Origin: a virus
Taxonomy: Duplodnaviria; Caudoviricetes
IMG/VR virus record: IMGVR_UViG_3300046678_000067
Span: 52,827-116,826 of that record
Reading direction: 5' to 3' (one strand)
DNA: 64,000 nucleotides
Both the position numbers and the translations under genes were made by a program. The notes beneath the pieces were generated by a model. It was given only the letters and a program-made list of their open reading frames with translations. It made no database searches and was not told the DNA's origin. Below, one piece after another: positions 1-15,516 of this stretch (positions within the stretch are counted from its first letter, which is position 1; every line of letters starts with the position of its first letter).

Positions 1-902
1 ACGGTTTCGATATTCGCATCAAGCTTCAAGACAACGTTGCTTACTTCAATATTCTGGATGTAGCCTACGCAGCTGAATTCTCACGAGCAAGTTCGCTTCG
101 CTATCATACAAAAGGCAAGCGCCGTGAAACGGTAATCGACGGTGCAATCTACCTGACCGTCAAGTCGATGAATAAGGTTGCCAAGGACGCGATCAAGACT
201 CCTGGTATGAAGCTGTTTGCCGATTGGGCCAAAACGACGCAAGTTGATTTGATCTTCGAAGCGAACAAGCCTAAGTCAGTTGCTGCTCCAGGATTCCAAC
301 TTTGCGTACAAGACTATACTTCTCAAAAGGGATTCCAGAGCAAGACTTCTAAGAAGAAAGTCAAGCTTGGTGTTGTGACTACGCCTGATATTGTTAAGGC
401 AGCCATCGTTACTGAGAAGTTGTATGGTATCAAGGAAGCGGCAATTCAACTGGGTATGACTGCTCAGCAACTATCGAATTGGCTTGTCTCTGAAGGCTAT
501 GCCAGCCGTTACAAGGGTAACAACGCGCTGTACTGGAACGCTTGGTTTAAGACCCAAGGTTACGGCAAGCGCCCGGTCATTACTGATCATAAGGGTCAAC
601 GCGAATCTAACGTGGCCAAGTTCACTGCTAAGGGCCTGGAGTTCGTTAAGGCTCGACTGGATTCTCAACGTGAATCGAATGTGCTTTCGTTCGCGTCTAA
701 AGAATCTAACGAACGCGTTAAGTTGGAGTCTGAGATCGACGCTCTGATCAAGAATACTTTCAAGGGCGTCAAGACTCAAAAGGAATACAGTGCATTGCTA
801 GGTATCTTCGATGCGGAATACTTCATGAAAGAAGCAGTTCTGATCAAGGGTGTCAAGGCAATCCTGGCCGAAGTTAAACTGAAGGAAAAGGCGAATGTCT
901 GA
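1..902 (+). CDS. Bro-N / antirepressor (KilAC-like) DNA-binding protein, 5'-truncated by window edge
   Basis: Frame is open from position 3 (GFDIRIKLQDNVAYFNILDVAY..., Bro-N-like). C-terminal GIKEAAIQLGMTAQQLSNWL...AKFTAKGLEFV resembles ANT/KilAC. Confidence 0.6.
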   Translation, partial: GFDIRIKLQDNVAYFNILDVAYAAEFSRASSLRYHTKGKRRETVIDGAIYLTVKSMNKVAKDAIKTPGMKLFADWAKTTQVDLIFEANKPKSVAAPGFQLCVQDYTSQKGFQSKTSKKKVKLGVVTTPDIVKAAIVTEKLYGIKEAAIQLGMTAQQLSNWLVSEGYASRYKGNNALYWNAWFKTQGYGKRPVITDHKGQRESNVAKFTAKGLEFVKARLDSQRESNVLSFASKESNERVKLESEIDALIKNTFKGVKTQKEYSALLGIFDAEYFMKEAVLIKGVKAILAEVKLKEKANV

Positions 903-1536: not shown

Positions 1537-2079
1537 ATGAAGTATAGCGTCATTCCGGGTTCCGGTGATGCAGAGTTGATCGTAGTGCGTGGACTTCCCG
1601 GTTCTGGAAAGTCCTCATTCGCCAAGACTCTGACGGATACCCTTGTTATTGAATCAGACATGTGGTGGTATCGTAATCCTCAACTAGAATATCAATTCGA
1701 TTTCGACCTTCTGAGCCGCGCTCATCGCTGGGCTTTGCAGTCGGCAGAAGCGTTCTTGGCTGACGGTCGATGCGTTGCAGTAGCAAATACAAACCTGACT
1801 TTCCGTGAAGCTAAAGGCTATGTTGCTTTTGCCAAGGCTATCGGTTGCCCTATTTCCGTCTATACGATGGATAAGGGAGTCAACTATGGAAGCATCCACG
1901 GCGTACCGAAAGAAGTGATGGTACGGATGCACAATAAGATGGAATCACACGAAGTATTCATGGAGAAAGCAATTGCTTATCAACCCGACGGAACTGAAGG
2001 AATTTGTCGAGACAAACCCCAAGCTGGTCTCTCGGAAGGAGTCCAAGCGGCATCCGGGTCTGTTCGTACTGAAGTATAA
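1537..2079 (+). CDS. P-loop kinase (AAA_33 / polynucleotide-kinase-like)
   Basis: LIVVRGLPGSGKS Walker A, VAVANTN, HGVP...RM motifs. Confidence 0.75.
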   Translation: MKYSVIPGSGDAELIVVRGLPGSGKSSFAKTLTDTLVIESDMWWYRNPQLEYQFDFDLLSRAHRWALQSAEAFLADGRCVAVANTNLTFREAKGYVAFAKAIGCPISVYTMDKGVNYGSIHGVPKEVMVRMHNKMESHEVFMEKAIAYQPDGTEGICRDKPQAGLSEGVQAASGSVRTEV

Positions 2080-2896
2080 GAACAACGTATTCTATGATAA
2101 CCTTTGGCACCTCAGCCCGTTTCTGAATAAGTGCCGAGGATTGGTTGTAGATAAAGACTACAACGTTATCATCAAACCGTTTACAAAGGTATTCAATCAT
2201 CATGAGAATGGGACGGACATTGATCGGGACGAGCTTTGCACTGTTGTCCGCAAGGTCAATGGCTTCATGGGCGTCGCAACTTATGCTCCGAGTTTTTCTG
2301 ATGACATCATTTACTCTACTACTGGCAGTCTTGACAGTGACTATGTCGATTTGGTTAAGAAGCATGTAGCTCAGTATGAGGATCGGATTAAGTCTTGCGG
2401 TCCATGCACCTTCATCTTTGAGATTTGCGACGAAACCGATCCGCATATCATCAAGGAAGAATTCGGAGCTTGGTTGATCGGCGGTTCAGTATATCACAAC
2501 GATCAATCTTATCCGGTGTTGGAGAGCGTACTAGATCATTTGGCATATCACTGGGAATGTAAGCGCCCTGAGCATCACCCTTGTCTGAGATTCTCAGAAG
2601 TGGTAAAGATGGCCAAGGAATGTAAACACGAAGGTTATATGGTCTATGGTAGGTTTTCAGGCACGTCTCTGAAGATCAAATCGCCATATTACCTGGTAAC
2701 TAAATTCCTTGCTCGTGCAGGAGAAAAGAAATTGCTTGAAGGTGTCCTCTCGGAGAACCGTTATCAGGCAATGCAGAAATTTGATGAAGAGTTCTATCCG
2801 TTGCTAGGGTTTCTGTTTGCCCACAAGGAAGAATTCTTGACCCTAGATGAACAAGCCCGAATCAATATCATTCGAGGCTATTTGGAGGATAAATGA
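1973..2896 (+). CDS. rnlA: RNA ligase 1 (T4 RnlA-like)
   Basis: LKY, CRGLV, KPFTKVFN, motif I KVNG, TFIFEI, EGYMV, KIKSPYY. Confidence 0.8.
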   Translation: MLINPTELKEFVETNPKLVSRKESKRHPGLFVLKYKNNVFYDNLWHLSPFLNKCRGLVVDKDYNVIIKPFTKVFNHHENGTDIDRDELCTVVRKVNGFMGVATYAPSFSDDIIYSTTGSLDSDYVDLVKKHVAQYEDRIKSCGPCTFIFEICDETDPHIIKEEFGAWLIGGSVYHNDQSYPVLESVLDHLAYHWECKRPEHHPCLRFSEVVKMAKECKHEGYMVYGRFSGTSLKIKSPYYLVTKFLARAGEKKLLEGVLSENRYQAMQKFDEEFYPLLGFLFAHKEEFLTLDEQARINIIRGYLEDK

Positions 2897-3438
2897 ATTT
2901 GTATGACACTTTCTTTACCAGCGATACGCATTATTACCATAAGCGTATTCAAGAGTTTTGCCCTGATACGCGGGCTGGTAAGGATGCAGAAGAAATGACT
3001 GAGATCATGATCGACAACTGGAATAAGGTTGTTAAGCCTCATGATCGGGTTTACCACTTGGGTGACTTTAGCTTTGGTAGTTATGCAAAGACGGCAGAGG
3101 TTCTTGGACGACTGAACGGCAACATCGAGTTGATTATGGGTAACCATGATGGTAAGACTATCCGTAGTTTGTCTGGATACTTTGCTTCTATGAAGGACTA
3201 CGACCATATCAAAATTGGGGATCAATACCTAGTATTGTGTCACTTCCCTATTGAGAATTGGCGTGAGATGAAACACGGTACAATCCATCTTCACGGACAC
3301 TTGCACGGCGATAGTCACCATGGTGATCGAAAGATTCAAGGTCGCATCGACGTTGGTGTTGATACCCGTAAGGATCGACTCATGACACCATACCACTATG
3401 ACGAAGTTTTGGAGATTGTGAAGAATGGCGGCCATTAA
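2893..3438 (+). CDS. Calcineurin-like metallophosphoesterase
   Basis: SDTH, HLGDF, GNHD, HGHLH motifs. Confidence 0.85.
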   Translation: MNLYDTFFTSDTHYYHKRIQEFCPDTRAGKDAEEMTEIMIDNWNKVVKPHDRVYHLGDFSFGSYAKTAEVLGRLNGNIELIMGNHDGKTIRSLSGYFASMKDYDHIKIGDQYLVLCHFPIENWREMKHGTIHLHGHLHGDSHHGDRKIQGRIDVGVDTRKDRLMTPYHYDEVLEIVKNGGH

Positions 3439-3739
3439 GAAAGTCAAAGTTCCGTTTGATAAAGACGGCAATATGTTACATAAAGATCGCGGTAATGCAG
3501 CACAATATTCAGAAGTGGATGCCCCATTCAGAGAACATATGACTTTCAAGTCTATCCAGCGTTGGTCGTCTAACGTTGTGATATTTGAGAATGGAGTAGG
3601 TAATACTTTCTATATGAGCCAAGGTGAATTCGAGAACAATATCAAGTATATGGTTCGCGGGGTTCTGGAAGGTAGGTTTTACTTCCATAAGCAAGGCCAG
3701 TATTTTAGTTTGAAGTATATCCCAGATGCCGTCATTTGA
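3425..3739 (+). CDS. Hypothetical protein
   Basis: ORF overlapping both neighbours in operon. Confidence 0.6.
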   Translation: MAAIKKVKVPFDKDGNMLHKDRGNAAQYSEVDAPFREHMTFKSIQRWSSNVVIFENGVGNTFYMSQGEFENNIKYMVRGVLEGRFYFHKQGQYFSLKYIPDAVI

Positions 3740-4484
3740 TCTGGTAAAGGCTAGAAAGAATAGCGCTGATAAGCAGTTTCGGCAGCGCTTTCTAGAGGAA
3801 TACGATTGCTACAATATTGACTCTCCTACAGGACGCTTATATGTTACGCCAGACGGTAGCCGTTTTCCATCGGTTACTACCTTTCTCGGTTCTCTTGAGA
3901 AGGATGATGGCTGGTTTGAAAGGTGGGCTGAGAAGCTAGGAGGTATTGATAAGGCTAATGCTGAATCTGAGCGATGCGCTACGCGCGGAACCGGGGTTCA
4001 CTTGGCCTTAGAATATCTTCTCAAGAACAACCCAAAGCCTGAAGAGGCAGGTGATTATCAATTCATGTATCGTCAGATTGAACGTGTAATGCGTATTCAC
4101 GTCGATGATATCTATGGGTTGGAACTGCCGATGTGGTCTAAGAAGATGGGTCTTGCAGGTCGGGTAGACTGCATTGCCAAATACAAAGGCGAGTTGGCCA
4201 TCATCGACTTTAAGACTGCGACGAAAGAGAAGCTGGCTAAGTTTATTACCAACTACTTCCTTCAAGCTACATGCTATTCGATTATGCTTGAGGAGCTATA
4301 CGGTTTGAAAGCCGAGAAGCTAGTCATCATTATCTCTGTTGAGCAAGCGGCTGAAGCTCAAGTCTTTGTTAGGGATCGCCGCGACTATATGGTTTTGCTT
4401 GCTGAGAAGATCAAGGAATTCCGTGTGATCCAGTCAGAGAAAGAAGCTAAGAAATCAGATGATCTTTTCGCTATGTTCGCATAG
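3726..4484 (+). CDS. PD-(D/E)XK exonuclease (Cas4-like phage exonuclease)
   Basis: FPSVTT, RGTGVH, AGRVDCI, IIDFKT, YFLQATCY motifs. Confidence 0.85.
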   Translation: MPSFDLVKARKNSADKQFRQRFLEEYDCYNIDSPTGRLYVTPDGSRFPSVTTFLGSLEKDDGWFERWAEKLGGIDKANAESERCATRGTGVHLALEYLLKNNPKPEEAGDYQFMYRQIERVMRIHVDDIYGLELPMWSKKMGLAGRVDCIAKYKGELAIIDFKTATKEKLAKFITNYFLQATCYSIMLEELYGLKAEKLVIIISVEQAAEAQVFVRDRRDYMVLLAEKIKEFRVIQSEKEAKKSDDLFAMFA

Positions 4485-4496
4485 TTAGGGTATAAT
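4478..4496 (+). promoter_or_regulatory. Promoter with TATAAT -10 (CGCATAGTTAGGGTATAAT)
   Basis: Near-identical to CGCATATTAGGGTATAAT at 12670-12687; both lie upstream of gene starts. Confidence 0.5.
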
Positions 4497-4527
4497 CTCT
4501 TTATCGAAACTTACATAGTTAAATGAT

Positions 4528-5010
4528 ATGCCGATAGTTAAAACTGTAAAGGGCGATTTGCTGAAGATGTTCAAGGATGGAGAATTCGATGCCATCGCCC
4601 ACGGCTGTAACTGTTTCCATACGATGGGATCGGGAATTGCTGGACAGATCTCAAAGCAATTCCCTATCGCTCTGGAAGCGGATAAGAAACAGACGTTGAT
4701 GGGTAACGTCAAGAAGTTGGGTGACTACACCCGCGCATATACGAATCACGGATGGATCATCAATGCGTATACGCAATATCATCCGGGTTATTCGACAGAA
4801 GATGTTCTATATCCGGCCATTGAAAGTGTTTTCACCCGGATAAACAAGTATGTCGCACCTATGCTCGAATTTGTATCAGACACTGATCTTAATTTGGGAA
4901 TTCCTAAAATTGGCGCGGGAATTGCTGGTGGAGATTGGAACCGTATTGAAGGAATTATTAACCGTGTTAGCCCAAGGCTATCCATAACCCTGGTGGAATG
5001 GGACCGGTAA
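4528..5010 (+). CDS. Macrodomain (ADP-ribose binding/hydrolase, T4 Tk.4-like)
   Basis: VKGDL, AHGCNCFHTMGSGIA, INAYTQ, PKIGAGIAGGDW. Confidence 0.85.
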   Translation: MPIVKTVKGDLLKMFKDGEFDAIAHGCNCFHTMGSGIAGQISKQFPIALEADKKQTLMGNVKKLGDYTRAYTNHGWIINAYTQYHPGYSTEDVLYPAIESVFTRINKYVAPMLEFVSDTDLNLGIPKIGAGIAGGDWNRIEGIINRVSPRLSITLVEWDR

Positions 5011-5074: not shown

Positions 5075-5151
5075 GCGCCGGTAGCTCAACCGGATAGAGC
5101 AGGGGATTTCTACTCCCCAGGTTGAGGGTTCGAATCCTTTCCGGCGCGCCA
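5075..5151 (+). tRNA. tRNA-Arg(TCT)
   Basis: Cloverleaf; GGGGA-TTTCTAC-TCCCC anticodon arm; GGTTCGAATCC; CCA. Confidence 0.93.
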
Positions 5152-5205
5152 TAAAGTTGCGCAAAAGCTGAGTTAGTATGGTATAGATACATATTGACTT
5201 GGTAC

Positions 5206-5277
5206 TGTTCTGAGGTGTATTGGAGTGCACACCGCCCTTTAAAGGCGGAAGATTTGGTTCGATTCCGAACAGAACAA
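5206..5277 (+). tRNA. tRNA with TTA anticodon (ochre-suppressor-like, or mutated Lys)
   Basis: Acceptor TGTTCTG/CAGAACA; anticodon arm CCGCC-CTTTAAA-GGCGG; T arm TTTGG-TTCGATT-CCGAA; no encoded CCA. Confidence 0.7.
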
Positions 5278-5293
5278 CTTAACAATAAGAGGT

Positions 5294-5743
5294 GTGATGA
5301 ATGAGTTAATTTGTATTAAGGGTTTTCCGGCCTATCATTTGGAAACCGAAACCCTTAAGGTTATTTCGTATCACAAGTCTCACGAGGGCAAATATCGCTC
5401 TCTGGAATTTAATGATCGCGGTCAGCACGGCTATACGCTGTATAACAACGGTCATAAAGAATGGTTCTCTCTTGAAAAACTCCGTGGCTCTGTTGAGCTG
5501 CACAAAATTAAAGGAATGGTTGTTCCGATGAAAGATAATGTTCTGAAAAGCGGTTACTGGATCGTTGGTTCGATTAGCAAGAGCACCGGCGCGTTCTCGG
5601 CAGCTTCAAATCCGAAGCCGCATTCTACTGAATCTGAAGCGCGTGCTGAAGCAGGTCGTCTGGCATCGCTTGATTCGAGCAAGAAGTTTACTTGGCTGCG
5701 AATCGGCGGTATGGCTTCGGCAGTTGGTATCGTCTACGAATGA
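5294..5743 (+). CDS. Hypothetical protein
   Basis: ORF with GAGG SD. Confidence 0.7.
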   Translation: MMNELICIKGFPAYHLETETLKVISYHKSHEGKYRSLEFNDRGQHGYTLYNNGHKEWFSLEKLRGSVELHKIKGMVVPMKDNVLKSGYWIVGSISKSTGAFSAASNPKPHSTESEARAEAGRLASLDSSKKFTWLRIGGMASAVGIVYE

Positions 5744-5979
5744 GTTTCAATCTTTCGAAGGATGCGGCTCCGATATCAAATACCTCTGTTACTGTTCCGC
5801 TAACTTTGGATGTATTGAAGTTGGTTGAGAAGACTGTAACAGATGTGTTGTCCTGCGTCTCTAATTCATTCCACTCCAATGGAGTTCTTGCAGAAACTAC
5901 TGCGGTAAAGAATCTGCATATGATCAAGGGTGAGATGGCGGCGTTGAAGAATCTGTTGGCAGCCATCGATAAGACTTAA
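5740..5979 (+). CDS. Hypothetical protein (start MSFNLSK, ATGA overlap)
   Basis: Translational coupling with upstream stop. Confidence 0.55.
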   Translation: MSFNLSKDAAPISNTSVTVPLTLDVLKLVEKTVTDVLSCVSNSFHSNGVLAETTAVKNLHMIKGEMAALKNLLAAIDKT

Positions 5980-5998
5980 TAAAAGTTCAAAGGTTAAA

Positions 5999-6391
5999 AT
6001 GAAGAAGATTTTCCTTGCGGCTCTGGTTGCTCTTTCGTTGGCTGCTTGCCACGATAATAACTATCCTCAGTATCAAACTCAGGCTCCTGCCGTTGTGGCT
6101 CCGCCCGCTGTAGTCGTGGCCCAGCAACCTAGCGGGAATGGTGGAGTTCTCACCGGAGCACTGCTAGGCGGGGCTGCTGGATTTATGGCTGGTAAGCTAT
6201 CTAACCGTGGTGCCGCAGCCGCTCCTGCGCCCGTTTATCATGTTACGAACGTGACCCAGAACGTCACGAAGAAAGTATATGTGAATAAGCCCGCTGCCGC
6301 GCCGGTTGTCGCTGCTCCCGCTCCTAAGCTGTCGTTGTCGAAGCCGGTTAAGACCAGCTCATCGTTCGGCGGATTTAATAAACGTAAGTGA
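5999..6391 (+). CDS. Pro/Ala-rich lipoprotein
   Basis: Signal peptide with lipobox LAAC; glycine-zipper-like GALLGGAAGF segment. Confidence 0.7.
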   Translation: MKKIFLAALVALSLAACHDNNYPQYQTQAPAVVAPPAVVVAQQPSGNGGVLTGALLGGAAGFMAGKLSNRGAAAAPAPVYHVTNVTQNVTKKVYVNKPAAAPVVAAPAPKLSLSKPVKTSSSFGGFNKRK

Positions 6392-6438
6392 ATTTTAACT
6401 GGTTTAAGTACCTATACTGAAGAGAAAGAAAGGAAAAT

Positions 6439-7071
6439 ATGAAGATTACTGTAACGCGCGGTTTGGCTGAACTGAAGACCCTTGATGCTCGCATTCAAAA
6501 TGCTATCAGTCAAGGAACCTATGTTGCTGTTGTTCGTGGTAACAAAGAAGTCCCGCTGAACGCTGCGGTTTCGAAGGATGAGCTGGAAAAGAATATCGGC
6601 GCGTCCTTTCAGCAAGTGGGTGACCTGATTAAGCGTCGTGATGCTATCAAGCGTGCGATTATCGTTGCGAATTCGAAAACGGAAGTTTCGATCAGCGGCG
6701 CAAAGATGACGGTTGCCGAAGCGATTGAACGTAAGAGTTCGATCCAGTACACGGAGCGATTCATCAATATGCTGCAAGCTCAGTATAACAACGCTACGGT
6801 TCAGGCTAATAACCAGAACGCGCGTGTTGAGGCTGACGTTGAGAAGCGTGTGATGGCTGCATACGGTAACGACAAAGGCAAGGTTACGGCAGAGCAACAT
6901 GACCTGATTGCTAAGGCAGTCAAGGGTGAGCAAGAAGCCAAGCTTCTGGACCCGAAGAAGATTGTGGAGCAGATCGCCACGCTTCGTCGTGAGTATGAAG
7001 ATTTTGTGACGGAAGTTGATTTCGTTCTGAGCGAGTCGAATGCTCGGACTGAGATTGAACTGCCCGACTAA
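6439..7071 (+). CDS. Helical coiled-coil protein (resembles DIP1984/DUF6847-like family)
   Basis: 210 aa all-helical; LAELKTLDARI...IKRAIIVANSKT...MTVAEAIERK...VDFVLSESNART; family name from recall only. Confidence 0.6.
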   Translation: MKITVTRGLAELKTLDARIQNAISQGTYVAVVRGNKEVPLNAAVSKDELEKNIGASFQQVGDLIKRRDAIKRAIIVANSKTEVSISGAKMTVAEAIERKSSIQYTERFINMLQAQYNNATVQANNQNARVEADVEKRVMAAYGNDKGKVTAEQHDLIAKAVKGEQEAKLLDPKKIVEQIATLRREYEDFVTEVDFVLSESNARTEIELPD

Positions 7072-7088
7072 GTAGTTTTGTAGGAAAA

Positions 7089-7404
7089 CTGAACTCATGG
7101 TACGCTGAACGCTTCAAAACTTTCGGCGTCCCTTCTCGCTTGGACGTAAAACCGCGAGAGCCAAAATCTACGATACTTGAATTTGCGAACCTATTATCCT
7201 CGCAAGGACAATTTGCCCCATAGGGGCTCCATTGTTAAAGTTCAAAGATTAAAGCTAAAGATTCAAAGATTAAATTTCTAAAGTTTAAGTCTCAACTTTC
7301 AAGATATTAAGTCTTAACGATTCTTTAAATCCTGGGTATGGTGTTGTGGGTGATCATTGAATTGACCCCGAGGTGTGCCCCAGGCTGGCGTGTCATGAGT
7401 TCGG
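7089..7404 (+). ncRNA. Putative ~316-nt structured ncRNA with internal A-rich repeat tract
   Basis: 7089-7107 pairs with 7386-7404 (19 bp, including G-U pairs); internal hairpins; no ORF; CTAAGTA late-promoter motif at 7068-7074. Confidence 0.7.
7237..7330 (+). repeat. ~12 imperfect tandem 6-8 nt units, consensus (A)AAGNTY
   Basis: AAAGTTC AAAGATT AAAGCT AAAGATTC AAAGATT AAATTTCT AAAGTTT AAGTCTC AACTTTC AAGATATT AAGTCTT AACGATT. Confidence 0.85.
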
Positions 7405-7467
7405 CTGATTGAATATATTCAAACGAGTGTATTCAACAAGCTAACGTTAAACTACAAACAGGTAATT

Positions 7468-7656
7468 ATGTCTCGTCAAAGTAAGAATGTGAAGAAGCGC
7501 GCAGAAGCAAAGCAGATCACCGCGATGCACAAGAAGGGCGAAAAGGGTCCGAAGCAAACCAAGGCTGTACACGGTAAAGACCCTGCGAAGCGTCTGTATA
7601 CGAAGTTGAAGCGCGGCCCGAATGATACGTCGCGTGAGAAGGCAAAGACTAAGTAG
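7468..7656 (+). CDS. Small, highly basic protein
   Basis: 62 aa Lys/Arg-rich ORF with phage-like codon usage. Confidence 0.65.
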   Translation: MSRQSKNVKKRAEAKQITAMHKKGEKGPKQTKAVHGKDPAKRLYTKLKRGPNDTSREKAKTK

Positions 7657-7665
7657 TTTTACTGA

Positions 7666-7749
7666 GGATAGGTTGCTGAGTGGTCAAAAGCGCCGGATTG
7701 CAAACCCGGTTCGAAAGATTCGTGGGTTCGAATCCCTCTCTATCCTCCA
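7666..7749 (+). tRNA. tRNA-Cys(GCA), enlarged variable loop
   Basis: GGATAGG/TCTATCC acceptor; loop TTGCAAA; U73; CCA. Confidence 0.85.
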
Positions 7750-7751
7750 AT

Positions 7752-7827
7752 CGAGAAGTAGCTCAGTCGGTAGAGCAACGGATTCATATTCCGTGTGTCG
7801 GCGGTTCGATCCCGCCTTTCTCGACCA
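7752..7827 (+). tRNA. tRNA-CAT (Met or Ile2)
   Basis: ACGGA-TTCATAT-TCCGT; CCA. Confidence 0.9.
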
Positions 7828-7832
7828 AATCT

Positions 7833-7961
7833 CGGAACTTATCCAAGTGGTAAGGAAACCCGTGTGTATCGGGAAGTAATGAAATTCAAACGGCGTCGGA
7901 GTACGATACGAGTTGAGTAGTGAAAATGAAATTGCTAGTTCGATTCTAGCAGTTCCGACCA
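7833..7961 (+). ncRNA. tRNA-like RNA with ~55-nt insertion
   Basis: Acceptor CGGAACT/AGTTCCG+ACCA; D loop AAGTGGTAA; T arm GCTAG-TTCGATT-CTAGC; no canonical anticodon loop. Confidence 0.7.
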
Positions 7962-7966
7962 GTTTA

Positions 7967-8081
7967 GATTGTGTGTCAAGGCGACCACTATACAGGATGA
8001 TGTGGGGAAGCGACAAAACAGGCGTCGGTCCTTCCAGGTATAGCGTTCCACAGATAGGTTCGATTCCTTACGCAATCACCA
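7967..8081 (+). ncRNA. tRNA-like RNA with extended central arm
   Basis: Acceptor GATTGTG/CGCAATC+ACCA; GGTTCGATTCC; CTATAC...GTATAG long arm. Confidence 0.65.
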
Positions 8082-8089
8082 AGTTTTAT

Positions 8090-8164
8090 CCCGCGTTCGT
8101 TTATTGGTAGGATGGGCGATATGTTCATCGTCAGAATGAGGTTCGATTCCTTGACGCGGGGCCA
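8090..8164 (+). tRNA. Atypical tRNA/pseudo-tRNA (abnormal anticodon loop)
   Basis: CCCGCGT/ACGCGGG+GCCA; T arm present; anticodon loop TATGTTCA is not 7 nt. Confidence 0.6.
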
Positions 8165-8184
8165 GTACTAAGTATTATTACAAT

Positions 8185-8260
8185 ACCAGGGTAACTCAGT
8201 TGGTAGAGTAGCGGACCGATAATCCGTTAGTCGCAGGTTCGAGTCCTGCCCCTGGTACCA
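8185..8260 (+). tRNA. tRNA-Ile(GAT)
   Basis: GCGGA-CCGATAA-TCCGT (C33); CCA. Confidence 0.9.
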
Positions 8261-8276
8261 AATTTGAAAGGATGAT

Positions 8277-8531
8277 ATGGGAAAGTTTTCTGAATTGCAT
8301 GAACGTATTGAGGAACCGGATGAATCTGGTTTCATTCATAATGCTACTGCTCAAGCTAGACATCCTGGATCTATCCGGCATGAAGCAAGGGTAAAGCCGG
8401 TTGGTTCTAAGTACCGGGTTACTCATTATCAAAACGGCAAGTATCAAGGCAAAGCCTCTGATCGGCATTTTGATGATAAAGACGAAGCGATCAATCACGC
8501 TAACACTCACGTGCAGCGAAACGTTCGCTAA
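8277..8531 (+). CDS. Hypothetical protein within tRNA array
   Basis: AAGGA SD, 84 aa. Confidence 0.6.
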   Translation: MGKFSELHERIEEPDESGFIHNATAQARHPGSIRHEARVKPVGSKYRVTHYQNGKYQGKASDRHFDDKDEAINHANTHVQRNVR

Positions 8532-8541
8532 GTAATTTTAT

Positions 8542-8631
8542 GGAAATGTGGCAGAGAGGTCTATTGCACCTGCCTAGAAAGCAGACGGTCGGTTCGCTGG
8601 CCCGTGAGTTCGAATCTCACCGTTTCCGCCA
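8542..8631 (+). tRNA. tRNA-Ser(AGA)
   Basis: Loop CTAGAAA; long variable arm; G73; CCA. Confidence 0.85.
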
Positions 8632-8638
8632 AGTTTAT

Positions 8639-8727
8639 GGAAGTTTGCCAGAGTGGCTTATTGGGTCTCCCTGCTAAGGAGCACGCTGGAAAACGGCACG
8701 AAGGTTCGAATCCTTCAACTTCCGCCA
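8639..8727 (+). tRNA. tRNA-Ser(GCT)
   Basis: Loop CTGCTAA; long variable arm; GCCA. Confidence 0.92.
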
Positions 8728-8801
8728 ATTAGGAGATTTATGTTTATTGTTCATCATTATAAGGCTTCTCATATAGGTAACTAACCTTATGAGGAGCAAA
8801 A

Positions 8802-9236
8802 ATGAGCAGAACCTTTCGACGTAAGAATATTGAAGATACATACGGTTGCAGTTGGAACCGTCGCGGTCGTAAGTCGGGTGGCTTCTATAGCACCTATGAT
8901 GCTGGTGAGATGGGCAAGAAGCGTTTCACCAAGCGACATGAATATGAAGAAGATGGTTTGATCTTCATCGAATGTAAGACTGGGTGGACTTGGAAACGAG
9001 ATTGCCCAACTTATCGTCCGATGACTGATGCTGAGCGTAATGATCGCTTTCGCCGGTTACACGGAGAAAGCCGCAGCCGTAATGCTTGGACTCCTGGTCG
9101 ATCCTATCGTCATGCGCGTGAAGTAAGATTGAGGACTCACAATAAGCAGGAGTTGATTCGTTATATGAAAGACCCTGAGAATTATGAGCCTATGGTGTTT
9201 GAGAATCCCGAGAGTCATATGTGGGATTGGTCGTAA
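8802..9236 (+). CDS. Arg-rich hypothetical protein
   Basis: GAGGAG SD; MSRTFRRK...WDWS. Confidence 0.7.
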   Translation: MSRTFRRKNIEDTYGCSWNRRGRKSGGFYSTYDAGEMGKKRFTKRHEYEEDGLIFIECKTGWTWKRDCPTYRPMTDAERNDRFRRLHGESRSRNAWTPGRSYRHAREVRLRTHNKQELIRYMKDPENYEPMVFENPESHMWDWS

Positions 9237-9399
9237 AGAGTACAATCGACAGTCAGCGGGCTTTAAACTCCCGCCTAATGCAAGCTGAAGTTACAGCTGA
9301 TTCCCCTTGGACGCTTGGGGATACGATATGCTTAAGAGAAGCCACCCGGCACCTTGAAGTGTCTACGGGACGATGGTACCCCGTCCGAATTAACAAAGG

Positions 9400-10230
9400 A
9401 TGAGAATGAAAAAGCTACTTGCTGCACTATTGATCGCCGCTGGCGTATTTGGTCTAGTTGACGGTTCTACCGCAGCTACAAATGAAGTTGGACAAACGTC
9501 TAGTATTGCTGTTGAGGCACCTTTTGGTCTACCGACTGACAACGTAGATGGTACGATTGTAGCTCACAAGGCTTTCGTATTGAAGCACGATAATGCGGCC
9601 AAGATTCCGGTTTGGGTTGCTTATACCCTAACTCCTCAACATACTGAAGGGTTAGTTGCACGTCAGGATAGTTTTAAGGCCGATGCTCTTCTACACGAAG
9701 GTCAACGGGCTGAACTGAATGACTATCGCAATAGCGGCTATGACAAGGGCCATTTGGCTAACAATGCAGATATGGCTTGGGAACTAGATGTCGACCAGGA
9801 CAGTTTCCTGTTGTCTAATATGGCACCTCAACTACATGCTTTCAATGCAGGTATTTGGGAGGAACTGGAAGAAAATGTTCGCGGTTGGGCGTTTAATCGT
9901 CAACACACGATGCTAGTATATGATGGTCCAATCTACAATAAGCAAGATAAGACTATCGGCGCTGATCACGTAGTTGTCCCGCATTCGTTCTATAAGATCG
10001 TTGTGGATGAAGTAACTAAAGAGTCTATGACTTTTGTGTTCCCTCATCAGGCTATCTCGATTAAAGCTGATATGACGCCTTATCTGGTATCTGTCGATGC
10101 GGTTGAGAAAGCGACTGGCGTTTCATTCCCGGTTCCTGGTAGTAAGACAGTGGTTGCTAAGGTTGTATGGCCGGATGATCTATCGAAGTTTAAAGCCGAT
10201 AAATCAGCGAAAAAAGCAGCCGCTAAGTAA
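9400..10230 (+). CDS. Secreted DNA/RNA non-specific endonuclease (Serratia/NucA family)
   Basis: Signal peptide MKKLLAALLIAAG; WVAY, GYDKGH, SNMAPQ..FNAGIWEELE, VPHSFYK. Confidence 0.9.
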   Translation: MRMKKLLAALLIAAGVFGLVDGSTAATNEVGQTSSIAVEAPFGLPTDNVDGTIVAHKAFVLKHDNAAKIPVWVAYTLTPQHTEGLVARQDSFKADALLHEGQRAELNDYRNSGYDKGHLANNADMAWELDVDQDSFLLSNMAPQLHAFNAGIWEELEENVRGWAFNRQHTMLVYDGPIYNKQDKTIGADHVVVPHSFYKIVVDEVTKESMTFVFPHQAISIKADMTPYLVSVDAVEKATGVSFPVPGSKTVVAKVVWPDDLSKFKADKSAKKAAAK

Positions 10231-10248
10231 TTTTGTAAGAAAGAAAAT

Positions 10249-10324
10249 GACGCGTTAACTCAGCTGGTAGAGTGCTAGACTGTCTATCTGGAAGTCAGGG
10301 GTTCGAATCCCCTACGCGTCGCCA
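10249..10324 (+). tRNA. tRNA-Asp(GTC)
   Basis: CTAGA-CTGTCTA-TCTGG; GCCA. Confidence 0.92.
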
Positions 10325-10331
10325 AATTAAT

Positions 10332-10405
10332 GCAGGTGTGGTATAGAGGTTGTGCCTTGGACTTCCACTCCAATGAGACGGGTTCGAATCCTGTCACCTG
10401 CTCCA
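10332..10405 (+). tRNA. tRNA-Gly(TCC)
   Basis: TTGGA-CTTCCAC-TCCAA; TCCA. Confidence 0.92.
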
Positions 10406-10415
10406 AATAGGAAAT

Positions 10416-10625
10416 GTGATGTATCGTTACAAAGATATGGTTGCTGCTGGTACTTCGGTTCTGGGAACTCTCATCAAAGAGAAAGCGCATCCTTCTGTAA
10501 TTGAGACAGTATATCAACGCGCTAATGCGGATTTTCTGAAAAGCTATCCGCAATGCGATGATGCTTGGTTTATGAGGATGAATAATGGGATCGTTAGTAA
10601 AGCTGATCAAAGACTGTCTAACTGA
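10416..10625 (+). CDS. Hypothetical protein
   Basis: Short ORF with AGGA SD. Confidence 0.5.
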   Translation: MMYRYKDMVAAGTSVLGTLIKEKAHPSVIETVYQRANADFLKSYPQCDDAWFMRMNNGIVSKADQRLSN

Positions 10626-10836
10626 AAATGATGGCGTGTCTTATTGTCCTTTCCGCGTAGCTGGTGCAGCTTTGGCCACTTCTGGAATTCCGGCTTTCGT
10701 CGGTGGGGCTATCGTTGATATCTATAAGCACGGTACTCTTGATTATGTAACATTCGGCACTGGTTTCGGTGCTATGATGGCCGGTCTTGCTGCCCTAGCT
10801 GGCGGCGTAGCTTTTAAAGCGAAAACCGACCGTTAA
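10585..10836 (+). CDS. Small two-TM membrane protein
   Basis: Two hydrophobic Gly/Ala-rich segments; GAGGA SD. Confidence 0.6.
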   Translation: MGSLVKLIKDCLTENDGVSYCPFRVAGAALATSGIPAFVGGAIVDIYKHGTLDYVTFGTGFGAMMAGLAALAGGVAFKAKTDR

Positions 10837-10900
10837 TGTTGTACTAAGTATTTTTTGTAGAGTCTCCTTAAGGGATGATTCTTCAAGCTCATACTTAGGA

Positions 10901-10973
10901 GTGGCTATATCTTAATTGGTAAAGAACTGGACTGTGAATCCGGTAAATATGGGTTCAAGCCCCATTAGTCACC
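10901..10973 (+). tRNA. tRNA-His(GTG), no encoded CCA
   Basis: CTGGA-CTGTGAA-TCCGG; GTGGCTA/TAGTCAC; C73. Confidence 0.85.
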
Positions 10974-11004
10974 CCTAAGTAAGTTTATGTAGTTGTTTTA
11001 CTAT

Positions 11005-11080
11005 TCCTCAGTAGCTCAGTTGGTAGAGCGTCGCACTGTTAATGCGTTGGTCGTAGGTTCAAGTCCTGCCTGGGGAGCCA
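11005..11080 (+). tRNA. tRNA-Asn(GTT)
   Basis: Loop CTGTTAA; GCCA. Confidence 0.93.
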
Positions 11081-11099
11081 GATTTTTGTAGTAACCTGT

Positions 11100-11171
11100 T
11101 GCGGGTTCCCAAGGGGGACTGCGGTCTCATAAGCCGTCTGGGAGTGGGTTCGATTCCTGCGCCCGCAACCA
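11100..11171 (+). tRNA. tRNA-Met(CAT), shortened D arm (initiator-like)
   Basis: TGCGGGT/GCCCGCA+ACCA; loop CTCATAA. Confidence 0.75.
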
Positions 11172-11181
11172 AAGTTTCATT

Positions 11182-11257
11182 CCGCGAGTAGCTCAATTGG
11201 TAGAGCGCTACCCTGAAGAGGTAGGCGTTGGAGGTTCAAGTCCTTCCTTGCGGACCA
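11182..11257 (+). tRNA. tRNA-Phe(GAA)
   Basis: CTACC-CTGAAGA-GGTAG; ACCA. Confidence 0.92.
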
Positions 11258-11266
11258 AGTTTCAAT

Positions 11267-11348
11267 CCTCGGTTTAGTGTAGAGGCCAAGCACAGTTGGG
11301 CGTCTAGTCCCTTCAGACATGGGTTCGAATCCCATAACCAGAGGTCCG
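11267..11348 (+). pseudogene. Degenerate tRNA-like element
   Basis: D arm GTGT..GCAC and T arm ATGGG-TTCGAAT-CCCAT intact; anticodon arm and 3' end irregular. Confidence 0.55.
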
Positions 11349-11356
11349 AGTTTAAT

Positions 11357-11432
11357 CAGGGTGTAATGTCAGCGGTAGACGGCGTGCTTTGGAAGCATGA
11401 GGCCGTAGGTTCGATCCCTACCACCCTGACCA
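11357..11432 (+). tRNA. tRNA-Pro(TGG)
   Basis: CGTGC-TTTGGAA-GCATG; ACCA. Confidence 0.92.
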
Positions 11433-11440
11433 AGTTTTAT

Positions 11441-11525
11441 GCGCGAGTGATGGAATTGGTAGTCTTGTCCGCCTTAGAAGCGGATGCCGTGAGGCGTGTC
11501 GGTTCGAGTCCGACCTTGCGCACCA
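11441..11525 (+). tRNA. tRNA-Leu(TAG)
   Basis: TCCGC-CTTAGAA-GCGGA; long variable arm. Confidence 0.93.
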
Positions 11526-11631
11526 AGTTTTAAAGAATTTGCCTTGCCACCAGTGGCGGTAAATGAAGACCGTTTGAGGAGATAATCGCGGCGCCAGTTC
11601 CCCGAAGTTACTGGTTTCTCCACTAATTATT

Positions 11632-11716
11632 GCCAGAGTGGTGTAATAGGTAGATGCAGCGGATTCAAAATCCGCCGTCGAAAGGCGTGCCGGTTCGAAT
11701 CCGGCCTTTGGCACCA
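11632..11716 (+). tRNA. tRNA-Leu(CAA)
   Basis: GCGGA-TTCAAAA-TCCGC; long variable arm. Confidence 0.93.
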
Positions 11717-11779
11717 AATTCCTCATGTTCGGGAAAATATGGGAAGGGATCGTTGACGGGCAACGTTAAAATCCGCAAT

Positions 11780-11856
11780 GCCCCGTTAGCTCAGTTGGCC
11801 AGAGCGTCTGCCTTGTAAGCAGAGGGTCGGCGGTTCGAATCCGTCACGTGGCACCA
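11780..11856 (+). tRNA. tRNA-Thr(TGT)
   Basis: TCTGC-CTTGTAA-GCAGA. Confidence 0.93.
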
Positions 11857-11873
11857 GAATTATGTTTTACTGT

Positions 11874-11949
11874 TGGGGTGTCGCCTAGAGGCCCAAGGCA
11901 ATCGGCTTTGACCCGGTTATCGTAGGTTCGAATCCTACCGCCCCTGCCA
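11874..11949 (+). tRNA. tRNA-Gln(TTG)
   Basis: ATCGG-CTTTGAC-CCGGT; GCCA. Confidence 0.9.
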
Positions 11950-12034
11950 ATTTCAGGCGATTCACCGCCTTAAGTGTGAACTTGAAATAGTATGATTGTG
12001 TTCGCCGGTACACGTAAAATAACGGCACGATTTT

Positions 12035-12113
12035 GGGCTTTGGGACTGCTTGGAGTGGTCGCCTGCTTTGCAAGCAGGATAACAGGTCGGTTCGAATCCG
12101 ACAAGGTCCACCA
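12035..12113 (+). tRNA. tRNA-Ala(TGC)
   Basis: CCTGC-TTTGCAA-GCAGG; G3-U70 identity pair. Confidence 0.92.
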
Positions 12114-12119
12114 AGATTC

Positions 12120-12206
12120 GGAGTGGAAGCATCAACGGTGATGCAGCGGACTGTAAATCCGCCGCCCCAACGGGCACGCCTGGTTCGATCCCAGGACACT
12201 CCACCA
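12120..12206 (+). tRNA. tRNA-Tyr(GTA)
   Basis: GCGGA-CTGTAAA-TCCGC; long variable arm. Confidence 0.93.
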
Positions 12207-12211
12207 ATTAT

Positions 12212-12351
12212 GGGATGATCTACACAAGTATATTGTGGAACCTTTTCTGCTAGCGCTGGCCGCATCGGAGAAGCAATATATTTGCTCCGGTGCACGTAGA
12301 ATGCTGGGTTGATCTCCAGCTGGGTTGGTTCGACTCCTTCTCATCCCTCCG
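12212..12351 (+). ncRNA. ~140-nt tRNA-like RNA with multibranched insert
   Basis: GGGATGA/TCATCCC terminal stem; GGTTCGACTCC T loop; internal hairpins GCATCGGAG/CTCCGGTGC and GCTGG/CCAGC. Confidence 0.6.
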
Positions 12352-12394
12352 TATTAGGCTCACCGGATGCCGCATTAGAAAATTCGGTACCAAT

Positions 12395-12469
12395 GTCGCA
12401 TTCGTCTATCGGTTAGGACATCAGGTTTTCAACCTGGTAAGGCGGGTTCAACTCCCGCATGCGACTCCA
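12395..12469 (+). tRNA. tRNA-Glu(TTC)
   Basis: TCAGG-TTTTCAA-CCTGG; CCA. Confidence 0.9.
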
Positions 12470-12519
12470 AATTAACAACGCTGCTGACGCCTCTTTACAA
12501 TGCGAAACACAGCAGAAAT

Positions 12520-12595
12520 GAGTGGTTGTTCTAACTGGTAAGATGCTGGCCTCCAAAGCCATGCGATCAGGGTTCAAATCCTTGGCTGCTCGCCA
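12520..12595 (+). tRNA. tRNA-Trp(CCA)
   Basis: Loop CTCCAAA; GCCA. Confidence 0.9.
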
Positions 12596-12989: not shown

Positions 12990-14063
12990 TTGAGTAAGCG
13001 TATTGGTGTATTGGCAGGGCGTTTCGCAGGTTATCATTTGAGTCATCACGAGCACGTTGTTCGTGCGGCCAACGAGAATGATGTTGTAGTGATTCTTTTG
13101 GGTTCGAGCAATCGTCGCATTTCGATTAAGAATCCATTCACGGTTGATCAGCGTCGTGAGATGATCATGGCGAATATTAATAGCGATTTCAATATTCCCC
13201 ATAAGGTCAAGTTCGTATTCAAGGAACTGCCGGATAATCCTTTTGATAACTATGCCTGGGCGCAAACCGTTCGTCATCTGGTTAACTCTCAAGCTCGTTG
13301 GGAAGACAAGATCACGTTGTACGGTAGCGATAAGGATGAATCGACGTTCTATCTGAAGATGTTCCCGGAATGGAATCAGGGTCTGACTGAAGCAACTAGC
13401 AACTTTGATGCATCTGCTCTGCGTAAGGCCTGGTTCGAAGGGCATCAAACTGATCGTTTCTTCAAGGATTTGCGCGATAAGGTTCCTTACGCAACGATGG
13501 ACTTTCTCCGCTCGCTGAAGTTCAATGAAGACCTTCAAGACGAATGGAAGTATTATCAAGATGAAGCGCTTCGTTTCAAGTGTTATCCGTATGCTGACAC
13601 GCTGAACTTCTGCTGCGGTGATGCTATTGTTCGTTGGCGCGATTACATCTTGTTCATCCGTCGCGGCCGCACTCCTGGTAAGGGTTGTTTGGCTACTCCA
13701 GGCGGATTCAAGAATCGCGATGAGACGTATATGCAAGCTGCGATTCGGGAATTCTATGAGGAATGTCGTCCCAATATTCCTCCTGCGGCTCTGGAGAAGT
13801 GTATCAAGACTTCTCATCTGTATGATGATGTTAGCCGTTCATTGGGTATTCCGCGTAATACGTTGGGCGTGTATTTCGATCTCACCCCTATGTTTGATGA
13901 TTTCCCTGAAATCTACCCGGCTGATGATGCGGCAAGCCACGAATGGATCCATATCGGTCAACTTGACGATGTAGCCAAAGAGACGTATGATGACCACGTC
14001 TTCATGGTGAAAGACCTGATTAAAAAATCAGACGATATTGACGAACTTCTGCTTCAACTTTAA
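12990..14063 (+). CDS. Bifunctional NMN adenylyltransferase / NUDIX ADP-ribose pyrophosphatase (NadM-Nudix)
   Basis: GRFAGYHLSH (HxGH-like), LGSS, KNPFT, ASALR; C-terminal PGGF...AAIREFYEE Nudix box, ADDA. Confidence 0.9.
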   Translation: MSKRIGVLAGRFAGYHLSHHEHVVRAANENDVVVILLGSSNRRISIKNPFTVDQRREMIMANINSDFNIPHKVKFVFKELPDNPFDNYAWAQTVRHLVNSQARWEDKITLYGSDKDESTFYLKMFPEWNQGLTEATSNFDASALRKAWFEGHQTDRFFKDLRDKVPYATMDFLRSLKFNEDLQDEWKYYQDEALRFKCYPYADTLNFCCGDAIVRWRDYILFIRRGRTPGKGCLATPGGFKNRDETYMQAAIREFYEECRPNIPPAALEKCIKTSHLYDDVSRSLGIPRNTLGVYFDLTPMFDDFPEIYPADDAASHEWIHIGQLDDVAKETYDDHVFMVKDLIKKSDDIDELLLQL

Positions 14064-14076
14064 TAGGAAATAACAA

Positions 14077-15516
14077 ATGTCTTTGAATACGATTCTGGCG
14101 GCAAACTTCATTCTTCTGTGCGACTCGTATAAGCTGCACCACTTTGCTGAGTATCCCGATGATACGGAATACATCTACTCGACGGTGGTCCCGCGCAAGG
14201 CTTCTAGCTACACGAATGAGATTGTTGCAACTGGCGCGACTTTCGTTGCCGCTCAGCTGGCTGCAGTTCGCATCACGCAAGAAATGATTGACGAAGCCGA
14301 ACAGGAAGTCAACGCCTACGGTTATGAGTTCAACCGTAAGGATTGGGAAACGATTGTTCGTGAATATGAAGGTCGTCTGCCGTTGAATATCTTCGGTGTG
14401 GAAGAAGGTACTGTGGTTAAGCCCAATACTCCGATTCTGGGTATTGTGAATACTGACCCGCGTTTCTTCTGGCTCGTTTCCTACGTTGAAACCATTGTTC
14501 AACGTATTATGTGGAAGATGACCACAGTTGCCTCGATCAGCCGTTATTGCTACAAGGCTCTTGAAGCTGCTACGGAGCGCACCGGCGCGACTGAGGCTCT
14601 CCTGGAATACAAGCTGCATAACTTTGGTGATCGCGGTGCTGATGGCGAAGATAGCGCGATTATGGCTGGTATCGCTCACGCAACTCTATTCAGCGGTTCG
14701 GACTGTTTGAGCGCAGGCCGTTACATCAAGAAGCTGTATCGCACCGGCAAGAACTATCTCAGTTCGGTTGATGCTACGGAACATAGCGTGATGTGCTCGC
14801 ACTCGGACGCTAAGGCCAAGGATGACTTTGGTGCAGCTGAGATGTCGGTTACGCGTTTGGAAGAAGCAGTTAAGCGTACCCAGCGTGGCATTGGTATTCC
14901 GTTGCAGTCGGTTGTGATCGACACGTATGATGACGAGCGTTTCGTCAAGGAATATCTGGGCGAACGTCTGGCTGACCGTATTATCAAGTCTGGTGGAGTT
15001 CTCGTTGCGCGTCCTGATTCTGGCGACCCGCTGACAAAGCCGATTGAAGTGATCGAGTGGCTGGAAGAGAAGTTTGGTTCCTCCAGAAACGACAAGGGTT
15101 TCCGGGTTCTGAATCCTGCGGTTCGTGTTATCCAAGGCGACGGCATCAATCAAGATTCTCTCGTGAAGATTCTGGAGAATCTGGTTGAATCGGGTTACTC
15201 GCTCGACAACCTGACATTCGGTATGGGTGGTGGTTTGACTCACGGTCCTGGCCGCGATGAGTTCTCGTTCTCGATGAAGGCAACGGCGCGTCTGGGTGGT
15301 AGCGGTTGGGTTAATCTTCTGAAGGAACCTAAGACGGACGCATCGAAGAAGTCGCTGACCGGTCTTGCTCACACGGTATACAGCGATGACGAACTGATCG
15401 TAGTTTCGGATTACACGGTATTCCAAGACCAGATCGGTTGGAAGCGTTACTTCCAAGAAGGTTATGTGGAGTATGTTCCGAAGTTTGAAGCGGTTCGTGA
15501 ACGTGCCCGAGCGTAA
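14077..15516 (+). CDS. nadV: Nicotinamide phosphoribosyltransferase (NAMPT/NadV)
   Basis: DSYKLHH, LHNFGDRG, ATEHSVM, VIDTYD, RPDSGDP, IQGDGI, FGMGGGL, FSMKA. Confidence 0.95.
   Translation: MSLNTILAANFILLCDSYKLHHFAEYPDDTEYIYSTVVPRKASSYTNEIVATGATFVAAQLAAVRITQEMIDEAEQEVNAYGYEFNRKDWETIVREYEGRLPLNIFGVEEGTVVKPNTPILGIVNTDPRFFWLVSYVETIVQRIMWKMTTVASISRYCYKALEAATERTGATEALLEYKLHNFGDRGADGEDSAIMAGIAHATLFSGSDCLSAGRYIKKLYRTGKNYLSSVDATEHSVMCSHSDAKAKDDFGAAEMSVTRLEEAVKRTQRGIGIPLQSVVIDTYDDERFVKEYLGERLADRIIKSGGVLVARPDSGDPLTKPIEVIEWLEEKFGSSRNDKGFRVLNPAVRVIQGDGINQDSLVKILENLVESGYSLDNLTFGMGGGLTHGPGRDEFSFSMKATARLGGSGWVNLLKEPKTDASKKSLTGLAHTVYSDDELIVVSDYTVFQDQIGWKRYFQEGYVEYVPKFEAVRERARA

Follow-up and report, generated by a model that had tools for sequence, protein, structure and literature searches.

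A helical-hairpin protein gene coupled to a pseudoknotted RNA with a heptad tract: a probable protein-RNA particle of T5-like and other phages and some bacteria

Several oligomeric proteins take one short RNA unit per subunit, as do TRAP on the trp leader, HutP on the hut leader, and the RSV nucleoprotein (7 nt per subunit). In type III toxin-antitoxin systems (ToxIN, CptIN, TenpIN and AbiQ), the RNA lies upstream of the gene of an endoribonuclease and consists of repeats of ~35 nt or more, each forming its own pseudoknot. In the Ro60 (Rsr)/Y RNA, YrlA and Yrn1 systems, found in bacteria and phages, a protein gene stands beside a closed non-coding RNA, and the tRNA-like module of Y RNAs can occur in either orientation (PMC4201824). 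The VIPR system (Vipr and vrRNA) combines a phage protein and an RNA of tandem repeats with a pseudoknot in it (bioRxiv 10.64898/2026.04.26.720920). Large structured phage RNAs with a dedicated partner are few.

The locus described here lies in a window of 64,000 nt (positions 52,827 to 116,826 of IMG/VR record IMGVR_UViG_3300046678_000067), taken from a fragment of 117 kb (74% complete) from the genome of a lytic phage of T4 type. A 210-aa gene is followed there by a closed RNA carrying an array of heptads (Table 1), and a sequence-only reading of the locus had proposed a ribonucleoprotein module of three components, with a small basic protein as the third. By their membership tests, the module falls outside every family considered. 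It resembles the Ro60/Y RNA systems in placing a protein gene beside a closed non-coding RNA, in bacteria as in phages, and in having tRNA-like modules of both orientations within the family; it differs in that its RNA is three times longer, pseudoknotted and furnished with a heptad array, with the tRNA module optional, and no TROVE domain (Pfam) was found in the 210-aa protein. VIPR differs in protein (RAMP there, non-RAMP here), in repeat period (5 versus 7) and in its units (hypervariable there, conserved here), and the RNA here is a single copy; the RAMP/RRM protein of VIPR, with its G-loop and thumb, is unlike the model of the 210-aa protein, a helical hairpin with short strands only. TRAP, HutP and the RSV nucleoprotein have folds unrelated to that of the 210-aa protein and lack a dedicated knotted RNA, and TRAP and HutP act in cis on an mRNA leader. 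With type III toxin-antitoxin systems the locus shares a protein gene beside a repeat-bearing pseudoknotted RNA, and the sequence-only reading had likened the RNA to a type III antitoxin; the likeness fails in its defining features, as the RNA lies downstream, the period is 7, and no nuclease or toxin family was matched by the 210-aa protein in Pfam, NCBIfam or PADLOC.

Other candidates were rejected. For tmRNA, ARAGORN and Rfam were negative, a period of 7 cannot hold a frame, and stops occur in all three frames through the arm and tract. RNase P RNA gave no covariance-model match, the likeness being one of helix order and a short motif only, and RNaseP-T gave no match. The PAK_P3 RNAs sRNA1 and sRNA2 are 89 and 132 nt long and lack a heptad tract (PMC4933390). 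No named RNA had been recognised at the locus, and this stands for the window copy, for which Rfam returned no family at gathering score nor at E up to 5; the RNA of 60 loci likewise matched nothing at gathering score except embedded tRNAs. It does not stand for the wider family, where RAGATH-27 (RF03100, 86 positions) is probably a catalogued 5' fragment of a sister clade. The P1 5' strand and the GAAAAC junction open its consensus, which scores 36–48 bits against the first 85 nt of the RNA in gut-phage loci (cut-off 76.1), with no match in the window. RAGATH-27 is an orphan candidate sRNA that, unlike the RNA described here, has neither heptad rail nor 3' core; a search of 151 Bacillota genomes recovered neither a match nor a true member, but carries no information because controls were silent too, and no text tying it to a protein was found. 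RAGATH-19 (RF03096, cut-off 85.6 bits) was also rejected, having no match in the genome of this locus or in five related genomes. In a literature search that covered few subscription papers, no paper on this system was found under the names DIP1984/DUF6847, T5.085, PHROG 1491 or RAGATH-27.

The RNA, its heptad tract and its coupling to the gene

Table 1. Features of the locus (positions in the window)
Feature	Position	Strand	Remarks
210-aa helical-hairpin protein	6439-7071	+	PHROG 1491, E 4e-63; DIP1984 (3KDQ)-like fold; presumed RNA-binding oligomer
T4-late-type promoter-like motif CTAAGTA	7068-7074	+	overlaps stop codon
Closed, multiply pseudoknotted ncRNA, 316 nt	7089-7404	+	folding, covariation, family comparison
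Closing helix P1, 5' strand	7089-7107	+	pairs with 7386-7404
5' threading strand	7109-7125	+	7109-7115 with 7370-7376 (long-range pseudoknot); 7122-7125 with hairpin loop 7358-7361
H-type pseudoknot	7126-7160	+	7126-7131/7142-7147 crossed with 7133-7139/7154-7160; found in window clade
Variable arm, small hairpins in window copy	7161-7236	+	
Rail of 12 heptads, presumed protein-binding array	7237-7323	+	median 12 units in 92 RNAs
Conserved 3' core	7324-7385	+	AAAU; stem 7331-7335/7380-7384; hairpin 7348-7368, loop pairs with 5' strand
12-bp hairpin after RNA	7409-7436	+	limited to window clade; possible 3'-end signal
62-aa basic ORF	7468-7656	+	conserved in clade; syntenic neighbour

The region 7080-7445 folds at z = -5.4, and none of 100 shuffles folds as well. 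The 19-bp pairing that the sequence-only reading had seen between the ends of the RNA is present, with 14 Watson-Crick and 5 G-U pairs, and its claim of an RNA-level structure on the plus strand is supported; 12 of the 19 P1 pairs change on both sides in 12 close relatives (52–100% protein identity). That reading lacked pseudoknots, which are present in the RNA, and its list of hairpins is accordingly revised: TTCTCGC/GCGAGAG exists as one stem of the H-type pseudoknot, and CCTGG/CCAGG is crossed by the long-range helix. Over the 12 relatives, 94.9% of the cells of the proposed structure pair and 23 pairs are double-changed (0 of 500 shuffles), against 30–43% paired in slid controls, over which a structure drawn from the window sequence is favoured; a family-wide test was therefore added. 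The long-range helix is 98.8% paired in the close relatives, with three double-changed pairs, while in the H-type pseudoknot the first stem is 98.6% paired and nearly invariant and the second has double changes. Cognate duplexes of the two threading-strand pairings are stronger than non-cognate ones (-6.2 versus -2.3 and -5.9 versus -2.5 kcal/mol); a short pairing, 7119-7121/7340-7342, was weak and no different from controls.

Among 92 diverse RNAs, which run from 255 to 468 nt in length and start a median of 19 nt past the stop codon, the top MI-APC pairs fall in the closing helix, the 3' stem, the long-range helix that crosses it, and the pairing of the 5' strand with the hairpin loop. The closing helix and 3' stem served detection, so that the signal there is partly circular, as are the junction logos, the junctions having been used likewise; neither crossing pairing entered into detection. 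Pairing of the 5' strand is stronger with the 3' core of the same RNA than with that of another (-12.8 versus -8.5 kcal/mol; control -6.5 versus -6.1). Comparison shows the RNA to be a closed ring, held together by P1 and by a conserved core with pseudoknots, and to carry a rail of ~12 heptads and a swappable arm.

The tract of ~12 units with a ~7-nt period, noted already in the sequence-only reading, is confirmed as 12 heptads, with autocorrelation of 0.50 at lag 7 and 0.49 at lag 14, values reached by none of 2000 shuffles, and further peaks at 21-22. The unit (A)AAGNTY given for it is indeed a repeat, better written AA(A/G)(G)N-T-Y; across the family (A-A-(A/G)-(G)-N-U-Y) the first A and the U carry most information. 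Between 11 and 14 units are found in 79 of the 92 RNAs, frequently with a 9-nt turn after the first 7 units and 4 more behind it, and hairpins, where inserted, are looped out between units; by itself the tract has no strong fold (mean z -0.7). The narrow unit count and the hairpins between units make it look like a single-stranded rail on which subunits, fixed in number, would sit, and direct binding of the heptads by a protein oligomer is likely. Judged by diversity at 32 T5-like loci, the tract is under purifying selection: its value of 0.012 is ten times lower than that of four-fold sites (0.121), and its variable triplets, at 0.021, are ~6 times lower.

Gene and RNA go together well beyond the window. 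When homologous loci were tested for a closing helix and a repeat tract, the full architecture was recognised automatically in 92 of 118 non-redundant gene loci, and a heptad tract was clear in 23 of the other 26 (115 of 118 altogether); one of the three loci without a tract looks like a broken assembly. A covariance model built from the window clade alone and scanned over 78 distant loci found the 3' domain downstream of the gene at 72, 49 of them at E up to 0.01, with one match in the window and never one in DUF6847 loci. Starting from the RNA, a motif scan of viral contigs gave 39 matches, including five apparent chance matches without heptads and three that are truncated, and the gene lay upstream in 30 of the 31 testable. 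The RNA is thus almost certainly a real functional RNA coupled to the 210-aa gene. On these comparisons the module consists of two parts, one protein and one cognate non-coding RNA, and the pair is probably an undescribed protein-RNA particle.

The pair is found in phage T5, hundreds of other phages, some bacteria, and giant-virus bins, and its usual surroundings are tRNA genes. In T5, a long-studied model phage, and in >700 phage records, a complex, conserved RNA of ~350 nt lies unannotated together with the protein that goes with it, the protein often under the label 'tail fiber'. The giant-virus MAG bins with the module are L157, L158, L269 and L364. In L201 and L206, long inverted repeats put 370–490 nt between gene and RNA, and L369 carries a complete orphan copy of the RNA (165-620, minus strand) behind an unrelated phage gene.

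The 210-aa protein

PHROG 1491, to which T5.085 of phage T5 also belongs, is represented in 718 phage records, 17 plasmids and ~3,400 clusters at 50% identity, and in bacterial genomes too. Its 'tail fibre' label is unsupported: the protein is a helical hairpin and not a fibre fold, and the gene is part of the tRNA region, with head and portal genes encoded on the other strand. Knock-down of T5.085 is scored 'Not Fit' on laboratory E. coli, that is, it carries no fitness cost (PMC11879866 supplement), which likewise argues against a tail fibre; that its knock-down costs nothing there although the gene is conserved suggests a conditional role. One T5 record (AY692264, locus L038) annotates at 2974-3771 an opposite-strand ORF, T5p083, instead of the real gene.

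The AF2 model (pLDDT 93.5) has a long helical hairpin and a small beta-containing head, so that the description of the gene as all-helical was right as to its 210-aa length and close as to its fold, which is mostly helical with short beta strands. The top match in both fold searches was 3KDQ, a Corynebacterium diphtheriae protein of unknown function that we take to be DIP1984 (Foldseek E 1.8e-3, probability 1.0; VIA Z 11.2, the next match having 7.4), with 151 of 152 residues aligned at an rmsd of 7.2; the Z score is below the 13 advised for helical proteins, but the whole chain is covered and the match stands clear of the others. Of the proposed assignment to a DIP1984/DUF6847-type family, therefore, the likeness of fold is retained and DUF6847 membership is not. 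The window protein had no match to Pfam DUF6847 (PF20935, cut-off 27 bits) or in NCBIfam, and of 117 relatives only 6 match DUF6847, none better than E 0.006; an hhalign comparison between the family and one DUF6847 protein gave a weak result, with a probability of 4.8%, and DIP1984/DUF6847 and the window protein differ in length (150 versus 210 aa) and share 17% identity. Atlas neighbours have no common Pfam, DUF6847 appearing merely as a lead at 0.87, a PDB sequence search gave nothing useful, and the BFVD fold matches are all uncharacterised; weak ones are found among giant-virus proteins. No known RNA-binding fold was found in the protein. R7, K13, R18, R66, R67, K71 and K99 are kept across the family in a protein that is net neutral, as would be expected of an RNA-binding patch.

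DUF6847 genes likewise precede a closed conserved RNA, of ~190–230 nt (six to eight loci), which suggests that the DIP1984 fold is generally RNA-coupled; that RNA differs from the window family in its conserved motifs and in a weaker period-7 signal. At L292-L299 (Bacillota) it has a conserved purine-rich 3' motif, without Rfam match, and two of these genomes have a pair of copies at a distance of 2 kb. Through the module, the structural-genomics orphan fold DIP1984 becomes accessible to tests, and the orphan motif RAGATH-27 is given a place.

Flanking elements and the tRNA region

The motif CTAAGTA had been read as a late promoter, and its location and the plausibility of the reading hold, but the motif by itself is not enriched (11 found versus 7.1 expected in the window). 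Seven of its eight plus-strand copies in the genome lie at 7068-10981, most of them directly ahead of tRNA genes; the minus strand has 23 copies of the variant CTAA(A/G)TA, spread for the most part over the virion-gene region, with the major head gene among the genes that it precedes. From these positions before tRNA and virion genes, a late promoter starting the RNA near 7080 may fairly be inferred. The 12-bp hairpin behind the RNA, taken earlier for a possible processing site, exists but is not supported as a conserved signal, as a tRNA, a terminator or an inserted gene is found there elsewhere; most close relatives have it, with varied sequence, and it is lost in L001, the closest relative (protein 93% identical). 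In L001 a GIY-YIG-like endonuclease gene (3975-4712, recognised by an N-terminal motif) sits exactly at the RNA 3' end, replacing the hairpin. The 62-aa protein does not hold up as a third component: its ORF is present at only 10 of 92 loci, all in the window clade and 64–741 nt from the RNA, sometimes behind inserted genes or tRNAs, two upstream genes are equally syntenic with the module, and a homologue in L304 has no module in its 1.5-kb flanks. No family was found for this ORF, which is a neighbour outside the module.

The genome has major head and portal genes on the minus strand and, on the plus strand at 5075-12595, 23 tRNA genes (ARAGORN), inside whose region the single copy of the RNA lies, with no array. 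RNA ligase, phosphoesterase, a macro-domain-like protein and NAD-salvage genes are also present in this region. The genes that border the tRNA array (1537-5010 and 12990-15516, plus strand) are ATPase/kinase-like, RNA ligase, phosphoesterase, macro-domain-like, a NadR/Nudix fusion and nicotinamide phosphoribosyltransferase, an RNA-repair and NAD-salvage set of counter-defence type. A tRNA-like gene at 5206-5278 (plus strand) has the anticodon TTA (ARAGORN 'tRNA-Stop'; Rfam 52.7 bits) and is possibly an ochre suppressor or a degenerate tRNA, yet TAA ends many genes here; another ARAGORN tRNA, at 8090-8164 (plus strand), has an abnormal anticodon loop and no Rfam match at gathering score, and is possibly a tRNA mimic or pseudogene.

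Clusters of tRNA genes are general insertion zones for accessory phage genes. Across the family, a tRNA lies within 1 kb at 54 of 92 loci and starts within 30 nt of the RNA end at 14; 3 of 11 cyanobacterial-phylum loci are inside tRNA arrays, and at several bacterial loci there is none in the vicinity. The surroundings of the 11 cyanobacterial-phylum loci lack the TrcR operator known from the Anabaena tRNA operon (PMC8421152). The variable arm carries a tRNA-elbow mimic in 12 of 92 RNAs (~13%; null rate 0.0002): six inserts keep the standard order, most of them lacking CCA or having an imperfect acceptor stem, and the other six are permuted (T arm, capped acceptor, D arm), one of which matches YrlA at E 1e-4. 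The arm of the window RNA has small hairpins only, with no tRNA-like module. Because 87% of the RNAs, the window copy included, lack a tRNA-like arm, the core function must lie elsewhere than in that arm. Gut phages have further orphan RNAs close to the module, with matches to skipping-rope, RAGATH-36, drum and twister-like RNAs (L016 2642-2729, L031 2645-2732; L190 271-399; L330).

Possible roles of the module

We hypothesize, with a little more belief than doubt, that the oligomer on its heptad rail is a Ro60/Y-RNA-like scaffold in tRNA/translation conflict. The RNA would be made from its own late promoter together with the phage tRNAs; the DIP1984-fold protein would oligomerise, each subunit gripping one heptad via the conserved Arg/Lys, to give a fixed-size particle of ~12 subunits. 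As in Ro60/Y RNA, the protein would hold one module of the RNA and present another to the ribosome or to enzymes that recognise tRNA; as decoy or tether, the particle would serve, under certain conditions, to protect or manage tRNA and translation when the cell is infected or under translational stress. One subunit per repeat, as a putative arrangement, fits all the data. A role of the module in tRNA/translation conflict, taken on its own, is put forward tentatively, at slightly less than an even chance. We are more hesitant still about a wider reading, in which T5-like phages, giant viruses and bacteria share a widespread but undescribed RNP class—a DIP1984-fold oligomer on a 12-heptad rail, with a possibly catalytic pseudoknotted core and a plug-in arm that bears tRNA-elbow mimics in several lineages—which may intercept or redirect tRNA-targeting defence and RNA-repair enzymes. 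If true, the RNP could serve as a modular RNA-protein scaffold, and the module bears on the role of phage tRNA clusters against tRNA-targeting defences.

It is unlikely that the RNA instead restrains or templates the protein, as an antitoxin or as the ruler of a ring or filament, with the helical-hairpin oligomer doing the work, at membranes for instance, and with an incidental link to tRNA. Gene and RNA are tightly coupled and the unit number is fixed, as would be expected, and the long helical hairpin resembles F-BAR, ESCRT-III and CdvA at background level (Z no higher than 7.4); yet the searches for a toxin or nuclease family were negative, the RNA stands downstream with its own promoter-like motif, unlike in type III systems, and the recurrent tRNA-elbow inserts would go unexplained. 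We think it highly improbable that the core is a ribozyme, perhaps RNase P-like, which processes neighbouring tRNAs with the protein as cofactor. Its near-invariant junction bases and the 14 tRNAs that begin within 30 nt of the RNA end are in line with this, and its helix crossing order and AAAU-CC ... GGCU motif recall P1-P2-P4 of RNase P, but no RNase P family matched at any threshold used, inspection finds no G-C pair beside the bulged U, no CR-IV or CR-V and no specificity domain, and the heptad rail would have no role.

The tract itself allows further readings. Fixed and variable positions alternate in the heptads, with a triplet entropy of 4.9 of 6 bits across the family, and VIPR offers a precedent for a guide whose target would be written, in a non-contiguous code, by the three variable bases per heptad; the heptads are however conserved within T5-like phages, their triplets being far less diverse than synonymous sites, and are thus not variable guides, and a strong AGN bias, a single RNA copy without array and a helical protein model without RAMP/RRM match likewise leave this reading a very slim chance. 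Almost as improbable is that the heptads are not partner-protein sites but decoy tRNA loops, U-turns like T-loops or anticodon loops offered to tRNA-cutting defence nucleases: U-N-R marks 786 of 898 unit junctions, a likeness to the T-loop is seen in the common units and at the tract end, and the context is one of tRNAs, whereas flanking stems are lacking, anticodon-like readings are limited to A35, and the tight link to one protein and the fixed count are left unexplained. The short median distance from the stop codon to the RNA would also suit a cis element, the protein controlling its own mRNA by way of a structured 3' UTR; with an RNA that has its own promoter-like motif, closed ends and embedded tRNA mimics, lies up to ~490 nt away with other sequence between, and exists as an orphan copy, this is scarcely credible. 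In the divergent RNAs of L094 and L097 the core is kept with another repeat unit, possibly a change of protein specificity.
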